Notes: generated from the letters alone by a model not told the origin. Shown: positions 12,211 to 46,100, counted from the stretch's first letter. The stretch is DNA of 64,000 nucleotides from Euglena gracilis (GCA_039621445.1 CP154954.1:27144123-27208122); one strand, 5' to 3'. Translations and numbers: made by a program.

Positions 12211-12654
12211 GTGCATACGAACTTTGACCGTTTTCACCGGCCTTGCCTGTTCACCTTGGGTGCAGCCCCAGTGATCTGGTGCCCAAGGCTAGGCGAGGGC
12301 CGTCGCCCCCATACCACCACCAGGCCACGTACCCCCAGGGTGTAGCGAACGCTGCTGCAAGTGCGCCGCACCCCGAAGGCCGCCCGACCTGATGGCCGAC
12401 TAGCGAGTCCCACGGCACCAGGTTGATTCCTGTTTGCTATCGGGTGCTGCCGTTCCGAAGGCCTCCCATCTTCCGCGCAGCACCCTGAGGACCCTTGCGG
12501 GCCCGCCGCTCGCTGTTACGCCCTTGGTATTGGGCTGCCCAAGCCCTACTCTACGGCTGGGCTACCTACGGTGAAATCGTGATAGATGTTTGAACTTTCA
12601 TCAGCAGGCATCCTGAGGAAACAGAGATCACAACATGGATAAAGAATGTTTAAG

Positions 12655-19134: not shown

Positions 19135-19370
19135 TGGGAGGGTTTCGGCCACAGGCCCGGGAGGAGGACCCAGCCCACACCGCCCCGGCGGGCTTCGGCC
19201 ACAGCGCCTGAGGGCTTCGAGTCGTCGACTGCCGGCCACAGCTTGGGAGGGCTTCAGCCACAGCACACGGGAGGGGACCCAGCTCCACCGTCCCGGGAGG
19301 GCTTCGGCCACAACCCATGAGGGCTTCGAATGGGCGGCTTCCAGCCACAGCTGGTGAGAGCTTCGGCCCA
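19135..19370 (+). repeat. GC-rich higher-order minisatellite (ggagggcttcggccaca)
   Basis: Core repeated about 7 times with ~110-bp super-period; copy at 32973-33210. Confidence 0.8.
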
Positions 19371-19984
19371 GGCTTGCAAGGGGGTACATCAGGGCTGCAT
19401 AGAGGTAGAGGTAGAGTTCAAAGGTCTCCACCTCTATGTCAACCACCTCTACCTCTACCTCCACCTCTATGTCACCTCTATGTCTATAAAATGTACCAAA
19501 AGTGCAACAAAAAGAGTCATAAAACACCCCATATGCTCGGAAAATGGCAATTTTGCATGAAAACCCATGCAAAACGGCGAGGGGATGACAGGACAAGAGC
19601 ACTTTTTTTGGCCAAAAATGGTCAAAATTAACCGAAAATGGCATTTTTGGATTAGTTTTCAGAAATTTTGATGGAAATACATGAGCCATCAACCTCAAAA
19701 TGACTATTTTGAGAGGAGAAACAGCAAAATTTCTTCCATCAAAATTTCACCCCTAACCGCTTTGATGATGATGATCAAAGTGGTGAAGTTCACTGGTGAA
19801 CTTCACCGGTGAAAAATAGCCAAGGGTGCCCCCCCCTCCCCCCTCCGGTGAATATTCGGTGAACTTCACTGGGGGTCCGAGACCCCCAAGAGCATAATCA
19901 CCCACCAACCCACCCCCTGGGGGGGACAGGGGTGGGGGCAGCTCGGGGGGACCCTCTTTTGGGGGGTCAATTTTGGGGTCAAAA

Positions 19985-20037
19985 AATTGAATTGAATTGA
20001 ATTGAATTGAATTGAATTGAATTGAATTGAATTGAAT
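19985..20037 (+). repeat. (AATTG)n microsatellite (copy 33821-33874)
   Basis: Direct reading. Confidence 0.95.
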
Positions 20038-20211
20038 AGAAAAAAAACCTGCCTCTGGCGGGGTCAGGGGATTTCTTAAGGACCCCCTGCGGGGGGGGGG
20101 GGTCCAGCCTCCGGCTGGAGAAAAGGCTGGTGGCTGGAAACGAACTGCTGCTGGACCCCCCCCCCCGGGTCAGACTTGGGGCACCAAATGAAGGTCAGCA
20201 TGAGGTTCTAC

Positions 20212-20666
20212 CAGGCATTTGCTTAAGGGATTGCAGTACCCCCCCCGGGGGGGGGGCTGGACTACAGCTAGTCCAAATTTGGCGAGGGGGTGTTCTAGCA
20301 GACCCCCCCCCCCCGGGGGGGGTCTGCTAGCAGGGCTAGCTAGTGGGAAAACTGTTTCCAGTGACCGGCGCGAAGCGCCGAAAATTTTTTTTGGGACCCC
20401 CAAAAATGGCCAAAAATGCCCGTTTTTGGCCATTTTTGGAAATTTTTGGAACAAAATCAGCCAAAAACCTATTAAAAACCTCATTTTTCCTCCGGCGCGC
20501 AGCGCCGGAGGAAAATTTTTTTTCCAGTCCGGGGGACCCCCGGACCCCCCCCCCCCCCCCCCCGGGGGGGGGGAGGGGGGGGTCTAGCTAGTCCACTTTT
20601 TCCAGTGTCTAGCCGATTGGCTAGCCAGTACCCCCCCCCCCCCGGGGGTCCTTAAGCAAAAGCCTG
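20212..20666. mobile_element. hAT-like MITE, 8-bp TSD ggttctac (copy 34050-34504)
   Basis: caggcatttgcttaagg / ccttaagcaaaagcctg. Confidence 0.85.
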
Positions 20667-23358: not shown

Positions 23359-24052
23359 CAGGGGGGGAAATGCGTTGCGCATTTTTCCGCATTTTTGCGC
23401 ATTTTTTTTTGCGCATTTTTGCCAATTTTTCACAACTGCGCGCGCATTTTTTTGCGCATTTTTTTGCACATTTCCCCCCGTTTTTTTGCACATTTTCCAT
23501 TTTTTGCGCATTTTTTGCGCATTTTTTTGCCCAATTTTGCATATTTTGCCATTTTTGCACATTTTCCACCCAAATCATATTGCTCACCGAATTTTGCCCA
23601 CGTTCAACTGACCCATTTCTGTAACCAACGAACCCATTGTCGCACTTTTTTTTCCACCCAAGGGACCCGCCTCAAGAGAAAACCCATGGGTGATGAGGTG
23701 TGAGTACTCATCCAATGACAATGAGGACACTAGGGGTTTCAGAGACCCCACATTGACACGTAACCAAGGCGGGACTCCCACTCCCCTGGTCACAAGTAAG
23801 GGGCAACCATGGCTGACATTGTTGGTTATGGTGAACGGAGAGTGACGCCTTGGTCATGCATTTTTTGGCCAAAATGCCTTCATTTCAGCTCTTTTTGGTG
23901 ATTTTGGTTTAATTTTGGGTTTACTGTTGGAAATTTTTCTAAGTCCTTTTTCCTTAGGAATGTCACAAACTCAGCGCATTTTTTGCGCATTTCTTTGTGC
24001 ATTTTTGCGCATTTTTTTCCGAGGGCCGTCCAGCGCATTCCCCCCCCCCCTG
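23359..24052. mobile_element. MITE, CAG(G)n ends, 7-bp TSD aacattg (copy 37175-37949)
   Basis: cag-Gn-aaatgcgttg / cagcgcatt-Cn-tg; ttttgcgca arrays. Confidence 0.85.
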
Positions 24053-24438
24053 AACATTGTTAATTTAGCCATTATTGATGGTGGAAAGAAATTAAACCGC
24101 CTCATGGGTGGTCCACAGTGAAAAAAAAAGAGACTTCCGACTTGGTGTTTGAGAAGGACCATTCACAACTGATTGTTAGAAAATACATGGTACGCTTCCT
24201 TCAATAATAATCGGAAAAACTTTCAGAAACGGGTCCCAAATGGCATTAATGTGGTAAAGAGCGGTGGCGCAATGCGGAGCTATCCCGAGGATCCTTAAGT
24301 TCTGTTGAATTATTAAAATAATAAATAAATAATGAACGGAGGGAGTTTATCAAGGTGGGTTCAGTTGTATTCTGGCAGAAAATATTTCTATGTTGTTGTT
24401 CCTGTTGCTGTATTACCTACCTCCGATAATTTGCTTCT

Positions 24439-27400
24439 GGAGCTCCACCCTCCCAGAGGGCTGGTTGCACTCCTGGGCTGGAACCTTTCCGTGACACTCG
24501 GTTCAGGGCCGGGCTATTCAAGGCCCGAAGGCACCCAGAGTAGTCAGGTCGGGCTAGTCAAGGCCCCATGGGCACCCGAACGCGTGGTGTGAGGTTTGCT
24601 CGGCCCCCAGGGCGCCCCACACCACACGACGCTCCTGACTGCTGCTCCTGCCGACCCCTCACCGTGGTGGTGTGGAGATGGGCTCGTCGAGGCCGAGGAT
24701 TACCATGCCCCCCCCTTTGCTGTCCCCCCCCCCCTGCTGTTCCCATTGGGGTGACGGGAACAGTACAGTGTCATAGCACTTTTTGTAAAGGATTCTTGGA
24801 ACACAAGGTTAAAAAGGGATTTTTTTGGTCGGTTTTAGGTGCTTTCCATCCCACCAAATCCAACCTAATGCCAAAATGGATGTTGTGAAACCAAAAAAGC
24901 TTCATTTTGGCATTTTAGGTCGCCTTTTGGGTCTAACTTGGTTGGTTGGTTCATGGCCCATGGGAACAGTAAGAGGGGGGGGAGCTTGTCCCCCCCCCCC
25001 TTACTGTCCCCCCCCCCCTTACTGTTCCCATGGACCCAAAAGGCGTCCACGTGACGGGAACAGTAAGGGGGGGGACATGGTACACCCGCGCGGTGCTGGC
25101 ATCCATCCTCCTCCTGCCATGTCACCCTCGGGATTCGGGGCTCACCACTTTTCATGGATCGCCTTTGTCCCGAGGCCATGCTCGCCCCAAGGCGCTCCGA
25201 CTGCTTCCACAGGGGCTTACATGGGCCTGACTGTACATTGAGCCACCATGCGCAGGTGCCTCCACGGCGACCGCCCTGTGTTTAGGTGACCGGCCGGTGA
25301 CCCGGTCGATAGCGATCCCCGACACCGGTGCGCCACACTCCGGTGCTACCCAAAAGGGGCCAGAGCCCCCGCTGGGCCACCCAGGTTTCCCCGGGGAGGA
25401 ACCGACGGTCTGATCCATAGCCCCCCGCCGGGGGCTCCCGGATCTGGCCTGGGGGGGGGGGTTGTGGGCCGACCCTAGGGTCGGCCCACGGTCGCCAAAG
25501 GGGGGTTGGTACACCCCTCCCCCCCCCTCTCCGAGGGGCTCGTCACGCCATTTACCCCCCCTCCCCCCCCTAGCCGCTAGCCGGACCCCCTCGCCACACC
25601 ACCCAACACATTTTTCATTGTGCAACCATGGTGCACCCCCCCCCCCACATCCGAGACCCCCTCGCCACACCATTTTCCGGCCATTTCCCCCCCCCCCCCC
25701 TCCCCCTATTCGGACCCCCTCGCCACGGCGTACCAACCCCCCAAAGGTCGCCAAAGGTCGCTATGGTCGACCCCCCCCAGGCTGTGGAGTGGGTGGCGAC
25801 CCTAGAAATCCTTGTGGGCCGACCCTAGGGTCGACTTAGGGTCGGCCCACCCCACGACCTCCCCCCCCTGCCACCGCAGGGTCAGTCGACTTAGGGTCGG
25901 CCCACCCAAGGTTGACGGCTTGTTTTTTTTGAAACAAAAAAAACATGTTTTTTTAAAAAAATATGTTTTTTTTAAAAAAAACGTCATGGAGGGTTTGGGG
26001 GAAAATTTTTTGCAATGTTTTTTTTTGAATACCTAATTTGACAAAGTATTCAGGTAGATTCCTAATTTTCAGGCAAAAATTTTGCAAAATTTAGACTGGT
26101 GATGCCTAATTTGGTGTCAAAATACTAATTTTCGGTTGGGGGATTCCTAATTTGGAGCCAAAAAGGATTTCCCCCCCAAAATTCGTTTTCGGTGATTCCT
26201 AATTTGCCCACCGAAAATGTGGTGTTTCCCCGTGTCCCCCGCTCCCCCCTGTTCCCCCCCCCCCCCGACCCGAACCACACCCAAAAAATTTTCCTAAAAA
26301 AATGGCGATTTCGCAAGGAAAAAGGTCAATTTTTGCTTTTCAAAAAAAACATGTTTTTTTTGCGTTTTTTTAAAAAAACATGTTTTTTTGTTTTTTAAAA
26401 AAACAAAAAAACGTCAACCCTGGGCCCACCCCACGACCTCCCCCCCCTCCAAAGAAAAAAAAGAAAATTTTGGGAACATTGACTTGGGACGCTAGGAATT
26501 TGGCAGGTCTGAATTGCTGCCTGCCCAACCGTTTTGGATGGCAAACCCCTTTTGTTGCCCAACTGTTCGAGGGCCCCTAAATAACAAAATCCCTTGTGTT
26601 ACCCACCCGTTTTGGGGGGCAAATCCCTTGTGTAACCCAACTGATTTGGGGGGCAAATCCCTTTTGTTGCCCAACTATTCGAGGGCCCCAAAATAACAAA
26701 ATCCCTTGTGTTAGCCATCCGTTTTGGGGGGCAAATACCTTTTGTTGCAAAACTGTTCGAGGGCCCCTAAATAGCAACATACCTTGTGTTACCCACCCGT
26801 GTTTGTATGCAAATCCCTTTTTGTTGCCCAACTGTTCGAGGGCCCTAAATAACAAAATCCCTTGTGTTACCCACCCGTTTTGGGGGGCAAATACCTTGTG
26901 TAACCCAACTGATTTGGGGGGCAAATCCCTTTTGTTGCCCAACTGTTCGAGGGCCCCAAAATAACAAAATCCCTTGTGTTACCCACCCAGGGCCCCGAAA
27001 GAACAAATTCCCTTCTATGTTGGCAACATACTTGGTGGCTAAGTTGTTTTGTGGTTCACTTTGGCGACGTTTGGCGACCGTGGGCCGACCCTAGGGTTGG
27101 CCCACTACCCCCCCCCCCCCCCCAGGCCAGTTCCTGGAATGGGGGGGGGGTGGTGGTGGGGGTGGGCCGACCCTAAGTCGTCCCTAGGGTCGGCCCACGA
27201 CCCTAAGGCGACCCTAGGGTCGGCCCACTAGGGGGGTTTCCCAGACGGCTCCTTGGGCGACTTTTGACGACCTTTGGCGACCGTGGGCCGACCCTAGGGT
27301 CGGCCCACAACCCCCCCCCCCGCGCCACAACCCCCCCCCCCCCCCCCCCGCCGGGTGCATACGAACTTTGACCGTTTTCACCGGCCTTGCCTGTTCACCT

Positions 27401-30400
27401 TGGGTGCAGCCCCAGTGATCTGGTGCCCAAGGCTAGGCGAGGGCCGTCGCCCCCATACCACCACCAGGCCACGTACCCCCAGGGTGTAGCGAACGCTGCT
27501 GCAAGTGCGCCGCACCCCGAAGGCCGCCCGACCTGATGGCCGACTAGCGAGTCCCACGGCACCAGGTTGATTCCTGTTTGCTATCGGGTGCTGCCGTTCC
27601 GAAGGCCTCCCATCTTCCGCGCAGCACCCTGAGGACCCTTGCGGGCCCGCCGCTCGCTGTTACGCCCTTGGTATTGGGCTGCCCAAGCCCTACTCTACGG
27701 CTGGGCTACCTACGGTGAAATCGTGATAGATGTTTGAACTTTCATCAGCAGGCATCCTGAGGAAACAGAGATCACAACATGGATAAAGAATGTTTAAGCA
27801 CCTTGGCAGACACTGTGATTTTTTTCCGCGCCAGATAATCTGTACCAACACCACAGACCCTGCCCGGTTGGTAACGGGACAGGCAGTCACTTGCCTCTTG
27901 TCACTTTCATCTGTGACATAACGGAGACAGTTTCATGATATTAAAAAAACTGGCATACTGATGATGTACGTGGCATGAGGTTGCCCTTCAAGGTGCCACG
28001 TGCCTTTACAGCCCTGCCAATGCTCACAGAGGAGGTGGACAGATTAAAAAGCATTCCGCCATTGCATTTTGGTGCATTCCTCTTGGGACTGCCCCCCCCC
28101 CCCCCATTGTGTACCTCCCCCCAGGGGTACATAATGGGGGGGGGTACATAATGGGGGGGGGATGGTACCTTGGTCTGGACCCATTGAAGAGGAGTTCCAA
28201 CTCGGTGCCGATGAAACACCCCTTCAGTATGTGCCAGCCCTACCAGTGCTTAATCTTGCTGCCCCTTGCAAAAAGAATTCTTTATTGAGTCATTTTCCTT
28301 TAGTTTTGACATAGAGGTGACATGGAGGGATAGAGGAGCTTTGGACACTTTTGTACTGCTGGATGTAGGTTGTTGCCACCCGACGTTGCACGGCCACAGG
28401 TCAGAAGCTCATATTACTTGCCGTGGCACGTCCGCAGTCCGCAAGCAGGGAACTACGCGCAAGATCCGGCCAATCAACGTCTACGTCTTCGCGAGCAGTT
28501 GCGTGCACCGGTCGATCCCCGCGTTATGCCCTCTGCCGGTACGGGATCGACCAGGACTCACATTGCAGGACCTGGGTCTCGAATAAGCTACTCGAGCGAT
28601 ACTCAGCTTGGTACTACGCGCCAGCTACCTACCGCTGTAGGCTCGTCCGCGGCACACACTCCCCTCCCAAGAGCCTTACCACAGGAGCCCAGGTACATGG
28701 GGGGGGGTCCTCGACCCCCCATGTTCACTTCCGAACTGAACTGGACATGTTGACTTCACAGAGGGGGGGGAGAGGGGGTCCGTCGCTGAAGGCGCCGATT
28801 TTTTTATTTAAACCGGCGTTTGAGACGCCGGGTTCAGCACAGAACCGGCGTCCCCCCCACGGGTTTTCCGGACGCCGGTTCTGTCCTAAAACCCGGCGTC
28901 CGGTTTTCATTCCTAAAAATGTCACCAAAACTGCCCAAAAGTGGCCCTAAGGCCCTGGTATGACTGTTTCAACCATCTAGGACAATGAATTTTGGCATTT
29001 GGGGACCACTAAGGTGGATATCCAAATTTGGTGAAAATTGCCCCAGATTTGGAAATAGAGTACTGTGCAGCGTGGAAAGATCTGATGGGCACTGCTGGTC
29101 GTCTGTTGAAAAGAGCTTTCGATCGAGGTGGTACCCTAACGTTGCACGCAGCCCGAGATACGCTCGCGATCGTTGGATCGTCCAGAATCTTCGTCGAAAT
29201 TTGTGGTGATTTTTGATCCAGTTTCGATCAAGAGGCAGTCTGAACCATACAGAAACGATTTGTGTCTTCAAATTGATGATCTGAGGGATCCAGGGGGTAC
29301 CAGGATTGTGAAATTAGGATTTCCCAGCGACAGGAAATAAGAGCTCCAGGCGGCGTGGCTAAATTTGGTGGTCATCACTAGTCGTCTGATGAAAAGAGCT
29401 TTCGATCGAGGGGTGAGTTTGTACCTGATGACTGACACAGCCAGAGATAGCTCGCGATCGTCGGAAAATGGTGAAATCCAAAGTAGCGTAACATTGCAGA
29501 TTAGTGGTCGGAGATTGGTCCTGGGAGTGTCCTTTGACCGAAGGTTGGGGACGCGGTGTCAAAGGGGGGTAGGACGCCTGTTCAGGACCGGGTTCGGGAC
29601 GCGTCACGTCCGGGACGCCGGGTTCAGGACAGAACCGGTGTCCGACCCCTCTTTTCTGATATAGAAAAAAAGAGCCCTTTTCGGTGTTCGCCCGTCGTTC
29701 CGGTTTTCGGTTTTTTTCCTGAAGTGAACAGGTACATCCAGGTACACGGGGGGGGGGTCTCGGGACCCCCTGTTCACTTCCGAAGTGAACTGAACAAGGG
29801 GGGGGGGGGAGGGGGGTCCCGGGGTCCCGAAGTGGACTACCTAGCCTCCACACCAGCCCGCTGCGTCACCGAGGCCGTGGGCCCTGCTCGGGGTGTGCCT
29901 CGCACGGCCGTAGTTTGCTAGTGCCTCTCACGAGGACCCTCACCCCCGCCTATTTGGCTAATGGCCGGGCTCCTTCAGACCCCCAATCAGCCAATTAGGG
30001 GGGGGGGACAATTAGGGGGGGGGGGGCTCGAGGACCCCTACCCCCAATTTTTTTTCCCCTGTGCAAAATTTATCGATTTTTTGAGCATAGTTGGATTGGT
30101 CATGACTTTTTCTTATCCGGCGAATTTTAAAATTTTGGAAACGGACATTTTTGGAGGTTTTCTGAGCCCTTTTTGCGGCCTTGCCAAAATTGGCCGGTCT
30201 TGTCCCGGAGGCCAGTTAGCCAATTAGGGGGGGGGGAAATAGGGGGGGGGGTGAGGCCTGTGGCATCATTGCAAATCATGACGGAATCTGTGGCAGAAAT
30301 CAATTTTGAGGCTGAAACTTTCTCGCCTTCAGATTTTTTAGAAACAACAGAATCTGATTCTGACTCAGAGAGGAGGTCAATTACATGCATAAGGCCCATC

Positions 30401-33400
30401 ACAGTGGCAGGGCCAGAAAATTTACAGCTGGTTCCACTGCACAGCATTGATGATGAACCAGACCCCTCAGTTTACAAAAGTGAAACAGAGGGAGAAAAAA
30501 ATGCTGAAAACGCAATAATTAAGGAAATAGTCATGCGAAGAATGAAAGCTGCTAGCATATGGCCAGTAAATTTTTCAGGGTTTCAGCAAATTTATGTGTC
30601 GTCAGACAGCAGCCCAGGGCCAGAACAAAAAGTTTTGCGTTAACAGCCCAGCCAGAACCATTGTTGTTAACGCAGGGTTCTTACACCTAACGCTCACAGT
30701 TTTTGGGATGTTTTGCCATAATTTTTGGCATTTTTGCCAAAATTTTTGGAACCTTTTGCAAAATATTTGTGTACGTTTTGCCATAATTTTGGACAGTTTT
30801 GCCAAATTTTTGGAATTTTTTTGCAAATGAAAAGAGTACTCTTTTCAGAGATTTGGGACTCCGCCGTCTGACAGTTTTGGGACTTTTTTTGCAAGTTTTT
30901 GGGACTTGCCATTTTTTTGTTCCCCTTTGCCCCTAGTGTGTGTTTTTGGAATGCCTGTCCATCCAAACCCCGGCATGGCTGGCAGCTCGTTCAAAACGAA
31001 GCCAAAAAATGTTTTTTTTCAAAAAAAATCCAAAAAGCATTTTTTTCTCCAAACAAAAAACTCCAGCTTTGCCAGATTGGATGCTGCACATGCAGCCCGT
31101 CGACCAAGAAGGTGTTGTCGCCATCTGACCGAGGATGAACTGGAGGACGTCTTCTGTGGCAAAAAATGCGTCTTAGACGCATACTCCGTCCTGAGTCCTG
31201 TGTTTTAAACACAGGACTCAGGACGGAGGGTTTGCTGGCAGGGCTGGCCAGTCGAAAAAAAATTTGTACCCATTTACCTAAAGTGCCCATTTTGGCACAA
31301 AATCAGCCAGAAAACATATTTCCCTCCCTCCCTCACCCCCCAATTGGCCAATTGGTCTCCAGGACAAGACGGACCAAATTCGGTAAGGTTGCAAAAGGGC
31401 TTGGAAAGCCTCCAATAAAGTCCGTTTTGATATTTTTGATATTTTCCGAATAAGAAACGTTGTGGCAAATCCCACGAATCCCACTGTGCACAAAAAATTG
31501 ACCAATTTTGCACAGTTAAAAAATTAGGGGGATCCTTGAGCCCCCCTAATTGTCCCCCCCCCCCCAATAACAACACACCCCTCCACCCTTCAGGCGGAAA
31601 AAAAAGGCCAGTTCAGGGAAGTGGACATTTTGGGGGGGGGTCAAATTTGCTTTTGGCACCTTTGGCGTCGAAGGCAAATGGCTACTTTCTTTGAGGGGGG
31701 CAAAATTGGCAAAACGCTTTGGTCACTTCGGGGCAGGGGGGGACACTGGGGGGGGGGTGAGGCATTTTTACTGGGTATGATCTGATTTACATCAGCTGTG
31801 TTGCTCTGAAGAGCCGTGGGGTTGCTGGTTTGTTTAGAGAGTTGTTTGTTGGATTTGGAGAGCTTTTGCAAAAAGTCCCAAAAATTTTGACCGCCGAGTC
31901 CCAAAGTCTCTGCAACGGAATCCCAAAAATGTGGCAACGGTCCCAGGCGTTTTGGCAAAAGAGCCCAAAATTATGGCAAAAGTGGTCAACAATTTTGGCG
32001 GGACGTCCCAAAATTGTGAGTGTTAGGTGTAATCGCGGTCAACACAGCCAGCTGCCCAACTGCAGGTTTTTCAGCCAGCCCAGCCGTTTTCGGCTGAGAT
32101 AGCTGTCCCAGCCCAGATGCCTGGGCAGTTTTTTTCACCCAGCCCAGCAGTTTTTGGCTGAGTCATCTGTCCCACCAATCATGGGGCCAGCCCAGATGAC
32201 TTTACAGGGTTTTCAGCCAGCCCAGCAGTTTTCGGCCAAGACATCTGTCCCAGCAACCATGGGGCTGTTGGGGGTGTGGGCCTCACAACCCCCACAACCC
32301 CCTGGTGGCTGGCCCCTGGCGCCTGCAGGCCCTGCCACTGGCTGGGAGCCATCAATTCACCCAGGGGGCCTGGCACCCACCTGGGACTTTCCTTGGCACT
32401 TTTCATGGTAATCCCACTTCCCAATTCCCAGCGCTGGCACAAATCAAGACACTTTCCAGAACTGAACCACCAAAGTCAAACTGAACATGCTGCGTGCCAC
32501 TACAAGCAAAAACACAGACATAATTTTACGTAAATCCTAATTCTTCTGCTGGAATCCTAATTTTCTTCTCAGCGCCCACACTTCCCTCCTTAAAAAGCTT
32601 CCCAAGGCAGCCAAACCCGCCTTCGGCAAAAGGGCGCTGGGTATTTTTTTGGCAAACACAATCTCGACTCCGTCTTTCTGTCTGTCCGTTTTTTTTTCTT
32701 CGTTGGGGGCGGGGCGGGGTTCGAAGGCTGACCCTTAGGGGGGTCGGTCTCCTACAGCAGCACGGGGGAGCAGCAGGCACCCGCACCACCTTGGGCCGTT
32801 CTGGCAGGGGTTCCCCCCCGGAACAGTCCAAAGATACCCCTTGGGCGTCATCTCTGGAATTTTTTTCCTCCCGTTTTTTTTCCCGTCTCTCTTTTTTGCC
32901 CGTCCAGAGATGGGGGTCCAGGGGCTGGTGAGGGTCCTGGGAAGGGGGCTCGCAGGTGCAGGGGGTTACGAGTGGGAGGGTTTCGGCCACAGGCCCGGGA
33001 GGAGGACCCAGCCCACACCGCCCCGGCGGGCTTCGGCCACAGCGCCTGAGGGCTTCGAGTCGTCGACTGCCGGCCACGGCTTGGGAGGGCTTCAGCCACA
33101 GCACACGGGAGGGGACCCAGCTCCACCGTCCCGGGAGGGCTTCGGCCACAACCCATGAGGGCTTCGAATGGGCGGCTTCCAGCCACAGCTGGTGAGGGCT
33201 TCGGCCCAGGCTTGCAAGGGGGTACATCAGGGCTGCATAGAGGTAGAGGTAGAGTTCAAAGGTCTCCACCTCTATGTCAACCACCTCTACCTCTACCTCC
33301 ACCTCTATGTCACCTCTATGTCTATAAAATGTACCAAAAGTGCCACAAAAAGAGTCATAAAACACCCCATATGCTCGGAAAATGGCAATTTTGCATGAAA

Positions 33401-36400
33401 ACCCATGCAAAACGGCGAGGGGATGACAGGACAAGAGCACTTTTTTTGGCCAAAAATGGTCAAAATTAACCGAAAATGGCATTTTTGGATTAGTTTTCAG
33501 AAATTTTGATGGAAATACATGAGCCATCAACCTCAAAATGACTATTTTGAGAGGAGAAACAGCAAAATTTCTTCCATCAAAATTTCACCCCTAACCGCTT
33601 TGATGATGATGATCAAAGTGGTGAAGTTCACTGGTGAACTTCACCGGTGAAAAATAGCCAAGGGTGCCCCCCCCTCCCCCCCCGGTGAGAATATTCGGTG
33701 AACTTCACTGGGGGTCCGAGACCCCAAGAGCATAATCACCCACCAACCCACCCCCTGGGGGGACAGGGGTGGGGGCAGCTCGGGGGGACCCTCTTTTGGG
33801 GGGTCAATTTTGGGGTCAAAAAATTGAATTGAATTGAATTGAATTGAATTGAATTGAATTGAATTGAATTGAATAGAAAAAAAACCTGCCTCTGGCGGGG
33901 TCAGGGGATTTCTTAAGGACCCCCTGCGGGGGGGGGGGGTCCAGCCTCCGGCTGGAGAAAAGGCTGGTGGCTGGAAACGAACTGCTGCTGGACCCCCCCC
34001 CCCCGGGGCACCCTTAGGGCAACACATGACAGTCAGCATGAGGTCCTACCAGGCGTTTCCTTAAGGGATTGCAGTACCCCCCCGGGGGGGGGGCTGGACT
34101 GCAGCTAGTCCAAATTTGGCTAGTGGGTTTTCTAGCAGACCCCCCCCCCCCCCGGGGGGGGCTGCTAGCAGGGCTAGTCAGTGGGAAAACCCACTCCAGC
34201 GACCCGCCCGACGCGCCCACAAATTCTTTTGGGCCCCCCAAAAATGGCCAAAAATGCCCGTTTTTGGCCATTTTTGGAAATTTTTGGAACAAAATCAGCC
34301 AAAAACCTATTAAAAACCTCATTTTTCCTCCGGCGCGCAGCGCCGGAGGAAAATTTTTTTTCCAGTCCGGGGGACCCCCGGACCCCCCCCCCCCCCCCCC
34401 CCGGGGGGGGGAGGGGGGGGTCTAGCTAGTCCACTTTTTCCAGTGTCTAGCCGATTGGCTAGCCAGTACCCCCCCCCCCCCGGGGGGCCTTAAGCAAAAG
34501 CCTGGGTTCTACACATGGCCACACACTGCTGCACACATGCCGACGTTGCTACCACCACCACCGGCAGCAGCAATGATGCTATGGAGTGAATATATTTCTC
34601 ATCAACATTATTCATTTCATTCCCGAGGAATAAATAAAGCTCTGCCTGCCACTTCTTCACTTTAAAACAAACCGTGGAGGGTGAATGCCTGGAAACAATC
34701 TGCAAGACGGTTGGGATGCCACAGGACATTGGCTTGACGGTGTGTACATAGGTATATACAGGCGATGGTGTCGCGGCCGGCATGCCGGCAGCCCGTTTAG
34801 ACAGTGGGGGGAGGCAAGCCATAGCCACGTCCACTGTTGAGCTTGTAGGCATCGGGATGAAAAAGTCAACCATATGCCACCAAATAAGGCTTTAGAAGTG
34901 TCACACCCGGTGAAATTTCAAACGGTGAATTTCACCATAGGGGGGAGGGGAGGGTCCAAAATGACCAAAGTCTACTGCCTGATCTCCCTTGGTCTCTATG
35001 TTGAGAAGACCTTCTCCAGCCTTGGGCGGTGATGGCAAGGGACTGGACAGAAAAAGTTTAAAAATTAATCATGAAATTTCAAGTTTTGCGTATTGTTTCA
35101 GAGCATGCCTTTCAACAATGTTTTGGGGACAAACCAATCAGAGGTTTTGGACCCGGGGGGAGGGGGTGGTCCGAAGGCTTACCCCCCTACCCCCTCAAAA
35201 GCAATGGTTTCAAATTAGGCAGGCCTTCCTGTACACCACTGCCTTTTCTTTTTCTCCCGCGTCCTCTTTTCAGGTTCACAACCATGCAGGTTCTCACACC
35301 CATGACGTTGTACTCCAACGGGCGCAGCATCACTGTGTACGCCCCCCCTCCACCCTCTCCCCACCCCTCCGGCAGGTGGAGGCTTCCCACCCAGTGGTCC
35401 ACCGCTTCCGCCGTCTATTGGGATTCCAAATGCCCCTGCAGCCGCCGCGGAAGGTTGGAATCCAGGTGCCGGCCCTTTGGGCTCTCCTGGCACTTTTCAT
35501 TTGAGTCCGCTTGGCATTTGTCTCAGCTTCAGGTTCCCGATGATGTCATGCATTACCTTATCTAGTAATCCATCCGTGCATTTCTTTTTGTGTTTTGAAA
35601 AAATGGATTATTTCGCAGGTTTGCACGGGTATGGGATCTCACCAGTTTTTTTTTAAAAAAACTCCGAACGGTTTTTTCTTCTTCAAAAAATGGGTCAAAA
35701 TGCTTTTGTTTTGAATCACAGCCTTTTAATCTTCAAAAATCCCTCCTCATTGAGTCAGATTTGCTATGCCGATGCCCCCAGGTGGACAAATAGCTGGCCA
35801 GCCTGCTCAGTTTACCTTAACTCCCCCATACATGGATTGTCATCACCAAATTCACATACCTACATTCATTCCCGCCATTCCCTGATTCTCGTGGTGATTG
35901 CCAATACGGGCAGTCGGTTTGAGCTTTTGATGCCTGGAAGAAGCCGAAATGGGTGAAGTGCTCTTTGGTCTCCAGCAAAACCATGCTGCGAATTGCAAGG
36001 TGTTTTGTTCACCCAGCATACCAATGCTGAATGATACCAAAAAGATAACCAAACACTCACCCCACCGGTCCCTCTTGTTCCTTAAAAATTCGTTTGAAGC
36101 CTTCTGAAATCAGGACACCTTAAAAACTTCAGCCCGAAAATGTTTTAATTATTGTGAATTCTGCAAGCCAAGGTTGAATTGTAAATGGGACGAATTGAAC
36201 CCAGCAGCGAAGGAGTATCATTGCCTGCTTTTCTTTTCATTGTCCTCGGGGTTTGTAGGGTTCATATGGGGCTCATACCAACCCCGCCTTGGCGTATTGG
36301 ATGTGGGGGGCAGTTGACCCAAGAGCCCTGTTCCTTGCGTGGGGGATCCCGAGGGTGGGTCAAAAATGTTTTAACTGACCCACCCAGTGGATGACGTTCA

Positions 36401-38347
36401 TGAGTGGAAAAATGCCAGTTTCTAGCGTTTATCAGGCCTGTGTTGTGGTTTTTTGATCTTTCAATACTCACACTCCAGAACTTTTGGACCACATCTTCAC
36501 GGTTGCAAGCCAGTCCTTGACCCCATTACCTCCGGCAGTGGGCTTGTCAGGACCGCTCCACCTTGCACCCCCCAGCCTGCTGCCCGCCAGCCCGCCTCTC
36601 TTTGGGCCCGGCCCCGTGGCCCCCACTGTGGTCCCTCCCATCCCTGCAACGCCTGGGCCGATGGGAACCCTGTTCAGCGGGGTCCCCCCCCAGCCCCAGC
36701 CCCCTCCCATCGTTCCCGAGTGGACGTTCATTTACCCATTTCCCCATTCCGGAAAAATTCACTCCAAAACAACGTTTTCTGCTCTTTTATTTTTGTATCA
36801 GTTCACTTGGACTTTCTCCGCGACTGTGAAACGCTTCCCTCCGATGAAGTCATTATCCGTGTGCGGTTGATGGTCAATCAATGCCCAGCCCCAATCTTTT
36901 CTCCATCCCAGCTCCGACAGTGCCTGTCCTTCCAACCACAGAGTGACTCATATTTCCAAGCAAGTTAACTTCCAGGCGCTCCCCACCGCCCTTCAGGAAG
37001 AGCATGTTGCTCCTGAGAGGGACGACGAGTCTCTTGGCTACATGTTTGCTCCAGCAGGCTTTATCCCAAGCTGTGGTTGCAACAGCATTTTTTTTTAAAA
37101 AAAACCAAAAGTTGTTCCAGGTGTTCAGAGTTGCCTGGCTGACAGAAATTAAATTATTAATATTATTAACATTGCAGGGGGGGAAATGCGTTGCGCATTT
37201 TTCCGCATTTTTGCGCATTTTTTGCGCATTTTTGCCAATTTTTCAAAATGCGCATTTTTTGCGCATTTTTTGCACTTTTTTTTTGCACATTCCCCCCCGT
37301 TTTTGCACATTTTCCATTTTTTGCGCATTTTTTTTTGCGCATTTTTTTGCCCAATTTTGCACATTTTCCATTTTTTGCGCATTTTTTGCGCATTTTTTGC
37401 CCAATTTTGCACATTTTGCCATTTTTGCACATTTTCCACCCAAATCACATTGCTCACCGAATTTTGCCCACGTTCAACTGACCCATTTCTGTAACCAACG
37501 AACCCATTTTCGCACTTTTTTTCCACCCAAGGGACCCACGTCAAGAGAAAAACCCTTGGGTGATGATGAGGTGTGGGTACTCATCCAATGACGATGACGA
37601 CACTAGGGGTTTCAGAGACCCCACATTGACACGTAACCAAGGCGGGACTCCCACTCCCCTGGTCACAAGTAAGGGGCAACCATGGCTGACATTGTTGGTT
37701 ATGGTGAACGGAGAGTGACGCCTTGGTCATGCATTTTTTGGCCAAAATGCCTTCATTTCAGCTCTTTTTGGTGATTTTGGTTTAATTTTGGGTTTACTGC
37801 TGGAAATTTTTCTAAGTCCTTTTTCCCTCAGGAATGTCACAAACTCAGCGCATTTTTTTGTGCATTTTTTTTGTGCATTTTTGTGCATTTTTTTGCGCAT
37901 TTTTGCGCATTTTTTCCGAGGGCCGTCCAGCGCATCCCCCCCCCCCCTGAACATTGTTAATTAGCCATTATTGATGGTGGAAAGAAATTAAACCGCCTCA
38001 TGGGGTGGTCCACAGTGAAAAAAAAAGAGACTTCCGACTTGGTGTTTGAGAAGGACCATTCACAACTGATTGTTAGAAAATACATGGTACGCTTCCTTCA
38101 ATAATAATCGGAAACTGTAGTGAAAGACTTTCAGAAACGGGTCCCAAAATGGCATTAATGTGGTAAAGAGCGGTGGCGCAATGCGGAGCTATCCCGAGGA
38201 TCCTTAAGTTCTGTTGAATTATTAAAATAATAAATAAACAATGAACGGAGGGAGTTTATCAAGGTGGGTTCAGTTGTATTCTGGCAGAAAATATTTCTAT
38301 GTTGTTGTTCCTGTTGCTGTTTTACCTACCTTGGATAATTTGCTTCT
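24439..38347 (+). repeat. Tandem segmental duplication, copy 2 (~13.9 kb)
   Basis: Ends ataatttgcttct like copy 1; lacks the 16056-17420 block. Confidence 0.95.
27800..28280. pseudogene. Second copy of the pogo-like transposase remnant
   Basis: Near-identical to 12655-13135; has RGKK. Confidence 0.65.
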
Positions 38348-39976
38348 GGAAAACTGTGCTCCAGCTAACTTGTTACATTGTCTTCTGCATGTGGTTTCTG
38401 TGGATTTCTGGAATCTGTCGTTGCGTTGTTTGTGTGGTATTCCCTCCTGCCCATTGTTGCTCACCTGTTTTTTTTCCAGTGCTGCATGTGTGTCTCGCAC
38501 ATTTTTCATGTTCGCGTTGTTTCCCTCTCTGGTGTTATCAGTAACCCCCTCCCCAATAAGTGCACGGATGTGCACTTTTTTTTAGGAACCAAATTTTGAC
38601 CCTCGGCACATTATTGGAATGTGTCAAAATCACAAACCACGCAATCTATTTTAAAATATTTTTTCATGACATCCCCTTGTGAATTTCTTGTGATTTGGCC
38701 AAACGTTCCAATCAAATCAAAAAAGAATGAGGGGAGGAAAATTACGGGGGTGGCATCAAGTTTTCCTTGTTATGCACGTAAAAAAAGGGGGAGATGGGGC
38801 TGCAATGGTCACATCTGTGGGGGGGGGGGCAGTTTGATGGGCTGTCCGGGGGTGATAGGTCTGTTGACAATCATGGGGAATTCAGCAAACTGGTTAATTG
38901 TTTAATGAACTTTGTTTGTTTTTTCTGGGGGCTTTTTTATTTTTTCCGTCGTGTGCTTCCTTTTATTTTTTTGTTTGCTTTTTGCGTTTTCTGTATTGGA
39001 TTTTTCTGCCTTTCCTTTGGGGTCTTGCTCATCTGATCCTCATTGTTATTCGTTCTTTTATTCGGGTCTTCGTTTTCCAGTGTTTTTGTGAGCTTCCCTT
39101 TTATTGTTCTATCCTCACGTTTTTTTCCTTTTCCTATTATTTCCTGTTAAACCAGTTTTCTGGTGTTTTCCGGTTGTCGTTGTGTTTACTTACCTTGTTG
39201 ACTGTATTTCTTTTTGTATTTGTTTCTGGGGACTTTTGGTGGGCCTTCTCGGGTTTCTTCGTCCCTTGGTACATTGTTTCTCATCTTGGTTTGTTGTTTC
39301 TGTTCTGTCGTGTGCGGGTCTTGGCTTCGTTCGGTGTTTGTGTTTTTCCAGTGCCCCCATGTTGCTACTTTTTTGTCGTTTCCGTTTCCTCTTCCTTCTT
39401 TCAATCCCCCCTCCCTCTTTGTAATATTTTTTCAACTTTTCCTCCTACTTTTTGGTTTGCATCCAAATCGTCGCCCGCTAATATTTTTTCAGCACATCCC
39501 CTTTTCAATTGGGTGTTGGGGGCCACTGTGCCCCTTTTAGGCTCTAAGTTTTATAGAGTTGTGGGGGTTTCCTTCAGGTGGCTCAATTGGGTCCTGAGTT
39601 GGGTCGGGTTAGGAATGATCATGGGGGGCAGATGATGGTTCCGGGGGGTCATTGGGTACTTTGATGTTACATGGGAGCAGGTTTATGGGCAGCTTTTTCA
39701 TGACACATAGCTTTATGTGTAATTGTGAATAAAAATAGAATGATAACATGTGTAATAATTAAGAAGTTATAAAAAGTGCACTGGTGATGAACGTTGCAAA
39801 CTTGGAATTTGCCATCCTGATGCCATTTTTCTTTCATGAGACACTCTACTGGCTGCAGCAGCGCCACCTCCCGTCGTAGCAAGTGGCCCGGTTTACAGCC
39901 TGCCTCCACTGCCAGTTGCCCCTGCAGTGCCATACACTGCACCCTGCCCTGTTGGGCTCCCGTTCTGGGCCCTCAG

Positions 39977-40150
39977 GCCCAGATATCAGCGGCCGGGTAC
40001 CGCCTCCAGGAGCTCAACACTGGGACCAACCTCTACATCTCCAACCTGCCCGACCGCATCACGAAGGAGGGGCTGAAGGAACTCTTCTCCGCCCACGGCA
40101 CGGTGATGAGCTGCCGAGTGGCCCGGAAGCAGGGCCAGAGCCCTAGCCAT
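39977..40150 (+). CDS. RRM gene exon (RRM1 RNP2, TNLYISNLP)
   Basis: CAG acceptor ends at 39976; GC3-rich codons; no ATG before the RRM, so an upstream exon is missing. Confidence 0.85.
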
Positions 40151-43100
40151 CCCATTGCTGACCACGGTGACTGCCCCCCCCCCCCCACTCCAAGGTGGGC
40201 TCGGCCAGAAGTGGCCAAAGCGTACACCCGACGAAGCCGGAAATGTCTTTAACAACTTGCCAGAAAAATGCACCACTTTTGCGCCATTTTTTATTTACAT
40301 GGGTGGATAGCAGCCCATTTGAGGGTGGGGGTTTCTGGAGACGTCTGATTTTTTTTTTTTTGAAGTGGAATTCCACCCTGAACTGAGTCAACAATGGCAT
40401 GATGGTATCGGCTTTGTGCAATACACAACATCAGGTCCATTGCGTGTGTGAATGCATGTGTGCGTGTGTGAGTGGTGTGTGTGTGGGTGTGCAATGTGTG
40501 TGTGTGACAGTGCCCAGTCCCGGGGGATACCTCTCTGGACAAGCGACTCAGGGACGAAGGGACTCAAGACTCAGACTCTGACCCCTGAGCAAGGTGAAGG
40601 TGCCAGGCCTTGAAAAGGAGTACCCCCTTTTTTTTTGGACCCGTGGACCCTGTGTGCCGACATTTGCCCCCAGGGGGTGGTGGTTATACCTAGCAGAGCA
40701 TTTCTAAACCCCCTCCTCCGTGGCAGTTGGATCAAGCCTGGTGCAGCGTTTCTCGTCACGTGTGATTTATGTGTTGATTACTGATTCAACCAAGTATGCA
40801 CCACCCTTTCTTGGTGGGAAGAACTGCCACAAAAACGACCAACAAGAATGTGTAATGCCACTGTTTCTTGAGAGTATGGCAAGCACAATCAATCAGAAAT
40901 CGTTGGCAAAGCTAGCAGAGCACCAGCGAGATGAATTCATCAACCAAGCGTCTTTACACCCACTTCTCTGGGTATTTCACAGTGCATTTTCAATTTTGAC
41001 TCTGGAAAGGGGGCACCAAGGACCTTGACAATTAGTTCCTGGGGGGTTTGGAGCAGACACTCTTGTGGGAAACTCCCCTCAAATTGTAATTTCACATGGT
41101 AATAATGAGAACACAGGAAATGTAGTTGGAAGATATCCGGACAAAATTGTTTTGCTGGTGTGCCCCCTCCACTTATTTTGACACCCCCTCCACTTATTTT
41201 TTAATGTTCTTTTTTAAGGCTTCCAAGACTGTTAAAGGTTAATTTTTTTTAAGACGCCTTAAAAAAAAAACCTGGTACCTCCCGTCGACGGGGACATTAT
41301 TAACCCCTTGGTGAAAAAGAAAGTGATGGAAAGACTAACGTGATGACATCGTTGTGTTTCCCCCCTCCGTGTGGTGCAGTGGGATCACGGTTTTTCCCAA
41401 CGTTGTGCAGGGGGGGGGGAAATTGATATCCGCATTTTTCCGCAATTTCCGCAATTTTCCGCAATTTTCCGCAATTTTCCGCAATTTTCCGCAATTTTCC
41501 GCAATTTCCGCAATTTTTCCGCAATTTTTTCCCATTTTTTTTCCGCAGAATTTTTTTCCCACCACCGAAGATGGAAGATGCAATGAGTTCAAGCCATTCT
41601 TCAAATGGATCAACAGGTGTTCTATTGTGTTTTGTTGTTTTTCCCCCCCCAGTTTACCAATTTTTCTCACAGGTGCACCACTGGTTACAGAATTGGGTGC
41701 GTCCCACCTGTGCAAAGAACATCAAGCGTGTTGATTTGTGCTCGCCTGCATCGACGTGGGTGTTGCGGTGTTCTGAACCTCACAATTGAAAATTTTCTAA
41801 GTCCCCTCAGACAGAAATGTGTATACCCGATATCAATTTTTCCGCAATTTTTCCGCAATTTCCGCAATTTTTCCGCAATTTTTCCGCAATTTTTCCGAAG
41901 GCCTCCGATATCAATTTCCCCCCCCCCCTGCGTTGTGATCCTTTGGCCCCCTCCCAGGGATGGCCCAGGCTGCGGTGGTGGCGATGAACGGAATGATGGT
42001 CGATGACAGCCAGGGAGGCCAGAGGTCACTGCGTTTCCCCACATTGTTGTCCCTGGATTGAAGGGGGCAGGACCCGAGGGATGGCGGTCTGCAGATCCAC
42101 CCAGGTCAAGGTTCGATCAACGGCCCAGGGGGAACCCCGTCCCGTGCCTCCTCCCCATTCTGTGCCTGGAATCAGAAATAGATACACCAGTGGTGAACTT
42201 TGCTTCGGACTGCCAAGGTAAATCAATTAGGAATGTCTAATAAATTAAGCAGGAACGTCCCCATTCCTAACCACCCCCCTGCCCTGCCCGACCCCCCCAC
42301 CCTCACCCGGGTTCGCACCATACCAAACCCGCTTCTCGGGGGGGGGGGGCAGTTGTCTGCCCCTCAGCATGGCCCCCGCCACCCTGCGGGCGGCCGGTTC
42401 ATTCGGGTGAAGCTGGCGGACCACGACAAGGACAAAGGGGTGACCAGCCGGCCGTCGTCCGACCTCTACGTCTGCAACCTGCCCGACTCCTGGTCGTACG
42501 CGGAGCTGCACTCCACGTTCGCCCGCTACGGGAAGGTGTACTCCTTGACGATGTTCAAGGACTCTGAGACAGGTGCCTTGCTTGCTTGAAGATTCACGTG
42601 TCTGATCACTCAGCCGAATAAAGAGGCGTTGATTTAAATTCTTCCCATTTCCTGCAATGGGTTGGTGGAAGATTCTCAACCAAGTTTCAGGGATTAAAGA
42701 GTAGGGGTGATTTGTTTGAATTCGGTGAGATCTGGGAGTATTTCGTGGGGAGGGGGGGCAGGGCAGGGGTTTTGGAGATGCGGTAACACCTAAGCGAAAG
42801 TGAAACCAAGAGCCACCGAGCCCATGAGCAGTCTTGCACCAGAGCTGCAGCATTCTCCATTCCTTCCATCTGGTGGTTTTTTTGAATCTCCAATTTGTTT
42901 CCCCTTCCTTCCTCTGCACAGAGTTGTAAATATCATTTCTGACCTGCAATGGCTGGAGATACATTTCCCTGGTCCATGCCATGCGTGCTCAGCTGGAGGA
43001 GGGGTGTTCAAGCTAACAATAGTTGCATATTTTATCATTGTCATTATCATTTATTATTTTCGTATTGGAAAATGCGTGGTTTTGCATTCATTTTGTGTAT

Positions 43101-46100
43101 TTTGACCTCTCATTTTGCATTTTTTTTTTTGCATTTTTGCAATTGCATTAAACGTATGTGCATGTTTTTTTTGCACTGTTTTGCCCCTTTTTGCGTTGCT
43201 TATTTTGAGCTGCCTGGTTTCACCCCCCCCCCCCCCGGTGTTCAGGGGGCAACATCGGCAGCGGCATGGTGCGTTACTCCTCCACCGCGGAGGCCACAGC
43301 AGCCATCCAGGGCCTCAACATGCTGCAGCTGCCCGGCATGGACCGCCCCATCGAGGTGAAGTACGCCGAGAGCCGGGCGGAGAAGGACCGCCGCGTCGCG
43401 AACCGCATGGACAACGAAGAGGAAGATCAGGTCGATCCCTTCAAGTGACTGCCCTAGTCGGAGGTTCCCTTCAGACCCGCCTCCCTCGCGCTTGTCTCGG
43501 CCCGCCCACATTGCTCTCATTTAACCACGAGGTCCAAAGAATGAATCCACTCAGGCATTTCTTGTGTACTTGCCTGGCTCAGTAATCGACCTGACCAGGT
43601 TTGGCATTTTCCCCCACTCTAGCCACTCTTCTAATTCCTCCTTCCCTTCCAGGGCGTAGCTTGAGAAAGTTTGACCCCCCCCCCCGGTCCAGCCAGCAGC
43701 CTTTTTCCAGCCAGCAGCCTGTTTCCAGCCCCGGACCCCCCTCCCCCGCTCAACGAGGTTTATTTGTTTCCAGCCGCCCTCTGCAGCTGGACGGCAACCG
43801 ATTTTTCGCTTTTGGGTGCAAAATGGGCAAAAGTGGGTCAAAAATGGGCAAAAAAAATGGGTCAAAATGGGCGAAAATGGGTCGGAAGAGGGCTGGTCAT
43901 GGCAAATATGGTCAAAAATCGCATTTTTCTTGCATAATTGGCAGTTTTTTTGGACATTTTTTTGCGATTCCGATTTTTTTGGTACCCGGTTCGACCCCAG
44001 GTCGGGCCCAGTTCCCGCCCGGGACCCGGCGGAGGGGGGGATCAGCCAGCAGCCTTTTTCCAGCCAGCCATAATTTTCCAGCCTCTGAGCTTGACCCCCC
44101 TGTGTGCACTGTGGCCGTTTTGAGCTTGCCCCCCCCTCGGGGGGGGGAGTCGATGAAAAACGCCCTGCTCCCTTCCCTGGTATTTTGCTTTAACCAAAAT
44201 TTTATGGTGAGATGGCGCCACTTCCATCTCTTTCAAATGTTCACTCCTTGCAGCCACTCCCTCAGCCGGAGCCCCCTCGGTGGAATGAATACCAATGGCC
44301 TCCAAGGCTGTCCGCCCCCCAGACAAAAAGGTCCGAAGCAGACAATTTTTTAAGCACTGGCCGACCCCCCCCCCCCCCGGGGGGGGGGGACTGGGTTTTT
44401 TGGAGGGGGGGGCGCCTGGGGAGGGGGGGTCGGGAAAAAATTACTAAAGTGACCCGGCGCCGAAGGCGCCGGAAAATTTTTTTGGGCCTTTTTTGCATGT
44501 TTTGGGTCAAATTTCCTTTGGATTCCAGAGTGGCCGACCCCCCCCCCCCGGGGGGGTAGTGTCTGACTGGTTTCCTGAAAAAAGTGACTGACTGGTTTTT
44601 CAAAAAGTGGAGTGACCCCCCTCCCCCCCCGGGGTCGGTAAAAAAATTGTATGGTCCGAAGGTGGGAAAGGCCCATACGATGTCCAATGTGATGCCCATT
44701 GAAGATTCTGAACCCCTCCCTAATGAAGGTTTGGGGAGGGTCTTTGACATCAGCCCCCTGTGATATTTACCCCATTGAAATCAGGGTGTTTGATTTTTTT
44801 TTTTTACAATGGAAATGCCCTCTGTGAATAAGGCGGTAGCTTGTGTCAAATATGCCCAAGTTCGCTCCCCACCCCTACTCGGAACCTAACATTGCATTAC
44901 ATTGCATTACGTTATGTTGCATTGCATTGCATTGCATTGCATTGCATTGCATTGCATTGCATTACATTACATTCATTACATAGCATCATATCACATCATA
45001 TCACATTTCATTACATTACAATACATGGCACTACATTACACGTACATTTCAACCCCCCACACTCGCCAACTTGTCATGCGGACAGTTTCCTGGCTCCCGT
45101 CGTTGCTGCTGGTTTCCGTCATTGTGGCTGAGATACCTGGACCTGGACGAACGGCCTTGAACCCAGCCCACCCAGCGGCCGCCCCCCGCCGAGAGCAGCA
45201 GCAGCGGTGGTGGCAGCAGCGGCCAGCTGGCCACCCCGCCGAACGTACCAGCGCAGGACATGGCGGCGGTGCAGGCGTTTTCCCGCATCATGAACCTGAA
45301 CGCAACAACAGGCAACGCGAAGCAAAGCCTGATGTGCCTGAACAATGGGCTGCAGCTCCGGTGTGCAGATGCCTCGCTTGCAGGTGTTTCTTGACCTTAC
45401 CTTACCTTACCTTACTTTACCTTACCTTACCTTACCTTACCTTACCTTTCCTCACCTTACCTTACCTTACCCCCTCGATGGAGGTCCAGCCAGCCAAAAC
45501 CTTTTTTCCAGCAGCTACCAGCCAGGCTGCGGCCTCGGGGGGGGGGGGGAGCTGAAATGGGCTTTACCTCAAAAATTTTCTGTGCAAAGCTCCAGAAATT
45601 ATTTAAAAAGTTTTTTAAAAAAAATTGTCAAAAATGGCATTTTTGAGAAACTTGTGAAAATGAATTGCAAATTATTTATCAAATCATATGAATTTTGGCT
45701 ATTCTTTTCTGGTGGAAAGCAGAAAAGAAGAAAGTTTTTCTGGCTCCAGAGGGTTGAACCCCCCCCCCCAGCCCGGGGTGGTCGGACCGCCCCCTCCCCT
45801 CCCCCGTGCAAAACCAACGCTCGCTTACGGCCCTGCCCGAGGGTGTCTGGCCAAAATTATACTTTGCCAGAAAAATCGACCCTCAAAAATACTGCCAAAA
45901 TGGGCAGAGAACCTTAGGTAATCTTTCAGCATCCTGTTTACAACAGGTTTTGAAACCACTGGGATTTTCTTTGGCTAATGCCAGAGGAAAAAAATCCCTG
46001 AACACAACAGCAAACTATCAAAGTGGGTACAGCAAACATTTTGCGTAACACAAACGCCTCCGTTATTTGGCCTTCTCTGCCACAGGGGTGAAGTGGACCC

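Follow-up and report, generated by a model that had tools for sequence, protein, structure and literature searches.

Nonconventional (NC) introns of euglenids have no GT/C-AG borders; according to Milanowski et al. (2014, PMC3935182), a stem joins their splice sites, direct repeats are found at most of their junctions, and their most conserved feature is CA/TG at positions +4,+5/-7,-6. Guminska et al. (2018, PMC6221363) describe a pairing of +4,5,6 with -8,7,6, as well as the removal of NC introns after the conventional ones, and a review (PMC11282704) lists pyrimidine^purine junctions (^ marks a cut or a joint throughout), repeats resembling target-site duplications, and a circular product. 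Gao et al. (2024, PMC11170887) found the pyrimidine tracts of conventional introns of E. gracilis to be C-rich, and describe terminal pairing for NC introns.

NC introns make up 71.8% of the introns of E. agilis, and a comparable proportion is reported for E. gracilis; both intron types are mixed in many E. agilis genes, and 84.4% of all introns of that species are slidable (Nomura et al., 2025, PMC12501133). Knock-ins in the same study define the code 5'-N3-CDG ... CH'G-N5-6^R, with a donor spacer of strictly 3 nt, an acceptor spacer of 5 nt (6 being tolerated), a purine at the start of the exon, and a requirement for pairing beyond the motif. Splicing was lost when CAG or CTG carried a single substitution, and only the middle position was probed with compensatory changes.

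Comparable introns have been described elsewhere. Intermediate euglenid introns (Milanowski et al., 2016, PMC4770533) have a stable terminal helix, slidable borders, and GT/GC-AG ends in at least one register. Introners of Micromonas, dinoflagellates and others, as presented in the review cited above (PMC11282704), carry inverted repeats at their ends and a short direct repeat at their junctions. They come in families of many copies, and the spliceosome removes them at sites that derive from the target-site duplication and the inverted repeats. Noncanonical introns whose ends are not GT-AG are also described for the diplonemids, a sister lineage (PMC12621601).

Here I describe a 262-nt intron located within the first of two RNA recognition motifs (RRMs) encoded by a gene of Euglena gracilis, in a 64-kb stretch of DNA that was analysed as a whole (hereafter the window). 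It is very probably an NC intron of the euglenid kind, at positions 40145-40406, and as such unremarkable, this class being known and very abundant. With the euglenid NC introns (PMC3935182, PMC12501133) it shares non-GT-AG borders, a helix starting from the +4/-6 pair, CA/TG at +4,+5/-7,-6, a 3-nt donor spacer, a 5-nt acceptor spacer, and a downstream exon that opens with a purine, as well as pyrimidine^purine cuts, a junction repeat, the lack of a pyrimidine tract, and the presence of GT-AG introns in the same gene. It departs from them in its third pair, U:A (CAT/ATG) instead of the G:C of the NC code (CDG/CH'G), and in its spacers, which can pair in an alternative, more stable register. 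As in the intermediate introns, the terminal helix is stable and the borders slide, but none of its three registers is GT/GC-AG. As in introners, inverted repeats stand at its ends and a short direct repeat at its junctions; unlike introners, it has no family in the window, and its ends are not spliceosomal. With the diplonemid introns it shares ends that are not GT-AG.

Materials and Methods

Reads and contigs from four public runs of one organism were placed on positions 39500-41420 of the window. Two of the runs, X21 and X24, consist of raw RNA-seq reads, of which ~5% and ~6%, respectively, were read. X1 consists of contigs presumed to derive from RNA, while X20 consists of contigs that hold 0.83 of the words and was taken as DNA. 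A joint was listed when it was supported by 3 reads and 2% of reads. Matches to the Pfam family RRM_1 were judged against its cut-off of 20.7 bits. The features of the locus are collected in Table 1.

Table 1. Coordinates of the intron, its helix and the surrounding gene, counted from the first letter of the window.
Feature	Position	Strand	Evidence
Exon, first half of RRM1; 5' limit slidable by 2 nt	39857..40144	+	X1 piece 39856-40143; RRM_1
TA, 5' copy of the 2-nt direct repeat, which allows the junction to slide	40144..40145	+	RNA joint (both = 2); sequence
Nonconventional intron, 262 nt	40145..40406	+	RNA joint; register in agreement with N3...N5^R, both cuts at T^A
Helix, 5' arm: CAT at +4..+6, then CCATTGCTGAC	40148..40162	+	13/15 Watson-Crick pairs, +4:-6 register
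Helix, 3' arm: GTCAACAATGG, one unpaired C, ATG at -8..-6	40387..40401	+	13/15 pairs; inverted repeat I2
TA, 3' copy of the direct repeat	40406..40407	+	RNA joint (both = 2); sequence
Microexon, 28 nt (29 in the leftmost register), RNP1 core of RRM1	40407..40434	+	X1 piece 40406-40435; X21 depth bin 40410-40474; loose ends at 40435
Conventional GT-AG intron, 1523 nt, C-rich pyrimidine tract	40435..41957	+	Loose-end reads; pyrimidine fraction 0.75
Element of 523 bp within the GT-AG intron, perfect 21-nt inverted repeats, 7-bp flanking repeat	41408-41930		Missing from an X20 DNA contig
Exon 3	41958..42007	+	Start from RNA loose-end consensus; end predicted from N3-CAG...CTG-N5^G
Second nonconventional intron, predicted (AGC-CAG ... 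CTG-CGGGC^G)	42008..42391	+	10/15 Watson-Crick pairs in register; open frame
Exon 4, predicted, first half of RRM2	42392..42572	+	RRM_1 match; open frame
Conventional GT-AG intron, predicted, C-rich tract	42573..43245	+	Pyrimidine fraction 0.79
Last coding exon, predicted, second half of RRM2, to TGA stop	43246..43448	+	RRM_1 match; open frame

An intron excised from RNA and retained in DNA

Over positions 39500-41420, the four runs yielded a sole listed joint, which connects 40143 to 40406, skips 262 nt with ends TA..GG, and can slide by 2 nt, TA flanking the skipped segment on both sides. Of the 50 X21 reads placed here, 24 have it (10+14, from 21 start places), as do one of six X24 reads and one of three X1 contigs (depth 79; RNA presumed). 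A further four X21 reads stop at 40145, and their overhangs extend into the microexon. RNA depth in X21 and X24 over the first RRM1 exon is confined to 39825-40149 and is zero in all bins from 40150 to 40344, and neither reads within the intron nor a backward joint were found in the ~5-6% of the two RNA runs that was read, from libraries that may have been poly(A)-selected. None of the 11 X20 DNA contigs has the joint, and a single X20 contig of 1862 nt covers 39670 to 41266 without a break, through the intron. The 262-nt intron is therefore excised from RNA and retained in DNA. All runs also agree on one T after 39957 that is missing from the window.

A hairpin flanked by short direct repeats is a classic setting for template switching, and both features are present at this locus. 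The joint might accordingly be an artefact, with the reverse transcriptase switching template at the TA repeat and so bypassing the hairpin, or it could reflect an allele or a retrocopy that lacks the 262 nt, given that rare DNA variants can drop out of Logan contigs. Against this, X21 has 24 junction reads and no read inside the intron, with no form other than the joint observed; the joint recurs in X24 and X1, the runs coming from three different studies, and its absence from all 11 DNA contigs argues against a genomic copy. The RNA molecules that carry the joint also lack the next intron, and retention of the 262 nt would meet an in-frame stop at 40250-52 (ORF 39821..40252). I consider an artefact or a deleted copy to be extremely improbable, and excision of an intron is retained as the explanation of the joint.

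Intron boundaries and class

The joint is equally compatible with intron registers 40144-40405, 40145-40406 and 40146-40407, whose ends are TA..GG, AG..GT and GC..TA, respectively; none of these is GT/GC-AG or AT-AC. In register 40145-40406, the intron starts with AGC-CAT and ends with ATG-ATGGT, the downstream exon begins with an A (A40407), and both cuts, 40144^40145 and 40406^40407, fall at T^A.

These boundaries differ from those proposed in the preliminary description, made from the sequence alone, which had removed positions 40151-40400 and given the intron CC..AT ends. That removal indeed takes out 250 nt and keeps the frame, as 39998-40150 ends with ..QSPSH and 40401-40433 translates as DGIGFVQYTTS, but the RNA joins 40143 to 40406, and the ends are those of the three registers above. 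The spliced mRNA codes for ..QSP-IGFVQY.., four residues fewer than in the earlier version. Neither the expected junction 40150^40401 nor a canonical 40194/40388 joint is among the joints listed at the threshold of 3 reads and 2%. The length of the RRM loop was considered as a test of the junction and dropped, as both versions are in frame and the loop is variable.

The intron fits the code in its spacers and its purine (N3, N5 and R), and has a U:A pair where the code puts G (+6) and C (-8). With its CAT/ATG trinucleotides, the intron thus belongs to the 38.8% of NC introns that lie outside the CDG/CH'G pattern. Since the full pattern is found in 61.2% of NC introns (PMC12501133), the strict code does not define the class. 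The earlier assignment to the euglenid nonconventional type is supported, the intron being missing from RNA, present in DNA, and devoid of a GT/GC-AG or AT-AC register.

Removal by the spliceosome at noncanonical sites, as a U2-type intron with degenerate ends or as a U12-type intron, was also considered. Spliceosomal GT-AG introns are present in the same gene, and a role for the spliceosome in NC splicing has not been formally excluded by the field (PMC11170887). On the other hand, no register offers spliceosomal ends, and the last 28 nt of the intron have no pyrimidine tract: their pyrimidine fraction is 0.43 (43%), as against 0.75 and 0.79 for the two GT-AG introns. The tracts of the neighbouring GT-AG introns are C-rich, in agreement with the description of E. 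gracilis in the same source, and, like the intron type, point to a euglenid host. An internal GT...AG pair that would keep the frame does exist (donor after 40194, acceptor AG at 40386-87, exon resuming at 40388), as had been pointed out from the sequence, but it is unused, with no such joint listed and an RNA depth of zero. Spliceosomal removal is thus a very unlikely explanation, and I continue to treat the intron as nonconventional.

The terminal helix

Inward from the +4:-6 pair, 13 of 15 positions form Watson-Crick pairs, arranged as 3 bp, a C.C mismatch, 6 bp, a C.A mismatch, and 4 bp. The outermost pairs are C40148-G40401, A40149-U40400 and U40150-A40399; +4..+6 is accordingly CAT and -8..-6 is ATG, with the CA/TG of +4,+5/-7,-6 present. 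Only 46 of 2,000,000 random position pairs in the 64-kb window reach 13/15, and at equal spacing 6 of 63,726 do so, the observed pair being among these six. The terminal helix exceeds chance, and it joins the ends of the intron, as was anticipated. The fold of the whole 270 nt is mildly better than that of shuffled sequences (z = -2.0; 7 of 200 shuffles are as good).

The arms had been recognized at 40152-40162 and 40387-40397, where 10 of 11 positions pair, and +4 had correctly been placed opposite -6. Both sets of boundaries share this register, the shift between them being symmetrical, 6 nt outward on each side. CAT is indeed found at 40148-50 and at 40398-400, as reported, but it is not a direct duplication at the junction, where the repeat is TA: what was taken for a 3-bp duplication of CAT consists of the three outermost base pairs of the helix (CAU 40148-50 with AUG 40399-401) and is not a target-site duplication.

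The outer part of the helix can also pair in another way. As ATG is tandemly repeated at 40399-40404, GCCAUC at 40146-51 can pair with GAUGGU at 40401-06, leaving a 3-nt bulge. In mini-hairpins, this alternative pairing has an energy of -18.0 kcal/mol, compared to -12.8 kcal/mol for the canonical register, and it is also part of the minimum free energy structure of the 270-nt fold. It is more stable, but incompatible with the published +4/-6 spacing.

Based on what is known of other euglenid introns, excision could proceed as follows. The terminal helix would form with +4..+6 and -6..-8 as its outermost pairs, bringing the intron ends together, and would be read by an NC splicing machinery that is probably not the spliceosome. 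The 5' strand would then be cut 3 nt upstream of the helix and the 3' strand 5 nt downstream of the helix, at T^A in either case, and ligation of the exons would leave one TA, the frame running ..QSP-IGFVQY... By analogy with other Euglena introns, the helix would thus act as the recognition element, with removal independent of the spliceosome and following that of the conventional introns, and the intron may be released as a circle.

The host gene

The gene lies on the + strand, and its exons code for two RRMs, with the intron inside RRM1. The exon ending near 40150 matches RRM_1 with E = 1.9e-08 (34.5 bits). Downstream of the intron, 22 X21 reads and the X1 contig depart at 40435 into letters identical to those from 41959 onward, hence the microexon is used, and a GT-AG intron, 40435-41957, follows it. 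The coexistence of the NC intron with a GT-AG intron in one gene, previously suggested, is thereby confirmed, as is the use of a small exon, although its length is 28-29 nt rather than 34 nt.

Further downstream, the gene structure is predicted. The putative second NC intron (42008-42391) shows a perfect N3-CAG...CTG-N5^G pattern, and 14 GT/GC-AG alternatives with an open frame also exist. Of the two halves of the predicted RRM2, the segment 42392-42571 matches RRM_1 with E = 0.0005 and 20.3 bits, slightly below the 20.7-bit cut-off, and 43248-43445 matches it weakly (E = 0.051).

Upstream of 39856, the X1 contig continues into letters found at 36916-32, and also at 23081-97. This one contig implies an upstream non-GT-AG intron of ~2.9 kb, with CA/TG at +4,+5/-7,-6 in register 36934-39856. 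A search of the protein collection ('longer' lengths) with the exon-A peptide gave eight candidates, none with E <= 0.001, and a search of the whole window against Rfam gave no match.

Possible origin of the intron

The origin of the intron is a separate matter, and a transposon ancestry would be compatible with its being an NC intron. In this scenario, a TA-targeting, MITE-like inverted-repeat element landed in the RRM exon, and its excision from RNA restores the empty site with one TA. A MITE-like or introner origin has already been proposed for NC introns (PMC3935182, PMC11282704, PMC12501133), and the intron has imperfect inverted repeats at its ends (13/15 in one register, with a 3-nt indel in the other) and a TA repeated at both junctions. 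Mobile inverted-repeat elements also exist in this genome, as illustrated by the 523-bp element, which is absent from one X20 DNA contig.

However, no specific support was found for the MITE or introner origin put forward in the preliminary description. Comparing the intron to the window with blastn returned only homopolymer matches (poly-C and poly-T), and no second copy. The 16-nt arm motif matches only itself and its partner in the window (2 matches, against 0.83 expected, with 20 of 100 shuffles giving at least 2). In DNA, the intron lies within one contig of even depth, whereas the repeat-rich region 41237-41420 splits into 7 short pieces; the unbroken contig is weak evidence that the 262-nt intron is single-copy. 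A 2-nt TA repeat is uninformative, since 84.4% of E. agilis introns are slidable, and both DNA sources examined contain the intron, with no insertion polymorphism observed. A transposon origin of this intron therefore appears rather unlikely.

The 523-bp element has ends of the form CAG...CTG, and a link to NC introns was considered on that account. It was rejected, as the flanking repeat of the element is 7 bp, whereas 8-9 nt would be removed under N3+N5-6. CAG/CTG stands beside the runs in none of the eight other G/C-run inverted-repeat pairs listed for the window (3 flankless C-run...G-run pairs being excluded). The CAG...CTG ends of the element are probably a coincidence.

A joint proposal, that the intron is a fossil TA-targeting inverted-repeat element and that its U:A third pair reflects a code requiring pairing rather than identity at that position, is likewise doubtful. 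If true, the cuts 3 nt and 5 nt outside the helix would amount to a 'precise excision' at the RNA level, restoring the empty site.

Significance

The biological weight of this intron is small, since NC introns are the majority class in Euglena and its geometry is textbook. It illustrates that an NC intron can be found from the sequence alone, through its helix, but that correct placement of the cuts needs the N3/N5^R rule applied at the outermost pairs: the preliminary description was 6 nt off on each side, with four codons changed as a result. Two features make the intron of use for the study of NC splicing in Euglena. Its efficient splicing with CAU/AUG represents a natural case of compensatory change, at a position that the published tests had probed by single substitutions only, and the competition between its two outer pairings could help to establish the point from which the splicing machinery measures.

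Candidate nonconventional introns

Two further nonconventional introns are proposed for the RRM gene, a plus-strand gene encoding a two-RRM protein. On the upstream side, one contig of X1, a set of contigs taken by guess as RNA, joins ..GTCCTTC (36932) to CAGCAGC (39856) at a junction slidable by 2 nt, and GT-AG ends are absent from every register of this joint. One register places CA/TG at +4,+5/-7,-6, the most conserved feature of euglenid nonconventional introns, and the loose contig end probably marks an additional intron of this type. On the downstream side, a nonconventional intron is predicted from its termini, AGC-CAG ... CTG-CGGGC|G, which give 10 of 15 pairs in register; 14 open-frame GT/GC-AG introns are available as alternatives to it.

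Candidate introns and inverted-repeat element of the RRM gene
Feature	Position	Length	Basis or location
Predicted nonconventional intron	42008-42391		Exact match to published code
Probable further nonconventional intron	36934-39856	~2.9 kb	Loose end of one X1 contig only
Inverted-repeat element	41408-41930	523 bp	Within GT-AG intron 40435-41957

Allelic variation and upstream duplication

An extra T after 39957, relative to the window, is found in every run covering that place, namely the X1 contigs, the contigs of X20 (taken as DNA), and two sets of raw RNA reads that were read in part, X21 (~5%; 10/13 reads) and X24 (~6%; both reads). X1 and X20 also have four substitutions in common at 39901-39950, of which three (39938, 39946 G>T and 39950) recur in X24 reads, and X21 has all four, at mixed frequency. 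In this exon, then, the window sequence has a frameshifting indel or represents a divergent allele. A second expressed allele is seen in X21, where, for example, 12 of 23 reads have C>T at 40090.

The upstream exon of the gene is present twice (23081-97 and 36916-32), because of a ~15 kb tandem segmental duplication (copies 9344-24441 and 24431-38350, roughly 97% identical) that stops just upstream of the gene body.

Inverted-repeat elements

The terminal inverted repeats of the 523-bp element are perfect over 21 nt, or extend to 24 nt if one extra C is allowed. It starts with CAG and a G-run, finishes with a C-run and CTG, contains tandem arrays of TCCGCAATTT type, and is flanked by a 7-bp direct repeat, CGTTGTG (41401-07 and 41931-37). 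In an X20 DNA contig the site is empty, with 41407 joined directly to sequence from 41938 onward, so that the element is polymorphic for presence/absence and has probably moved recently.

Across the whole 64 kb window there are 179 runs of G or C of at least 8 nt. Many of them form inverted repeats of the G-run ... C-run type whose inner arms also match, as at 10363/11974-12183, 14850/17712 and 60349/60707. The genome looks repeat-rich, with several families of foldback-like elements.
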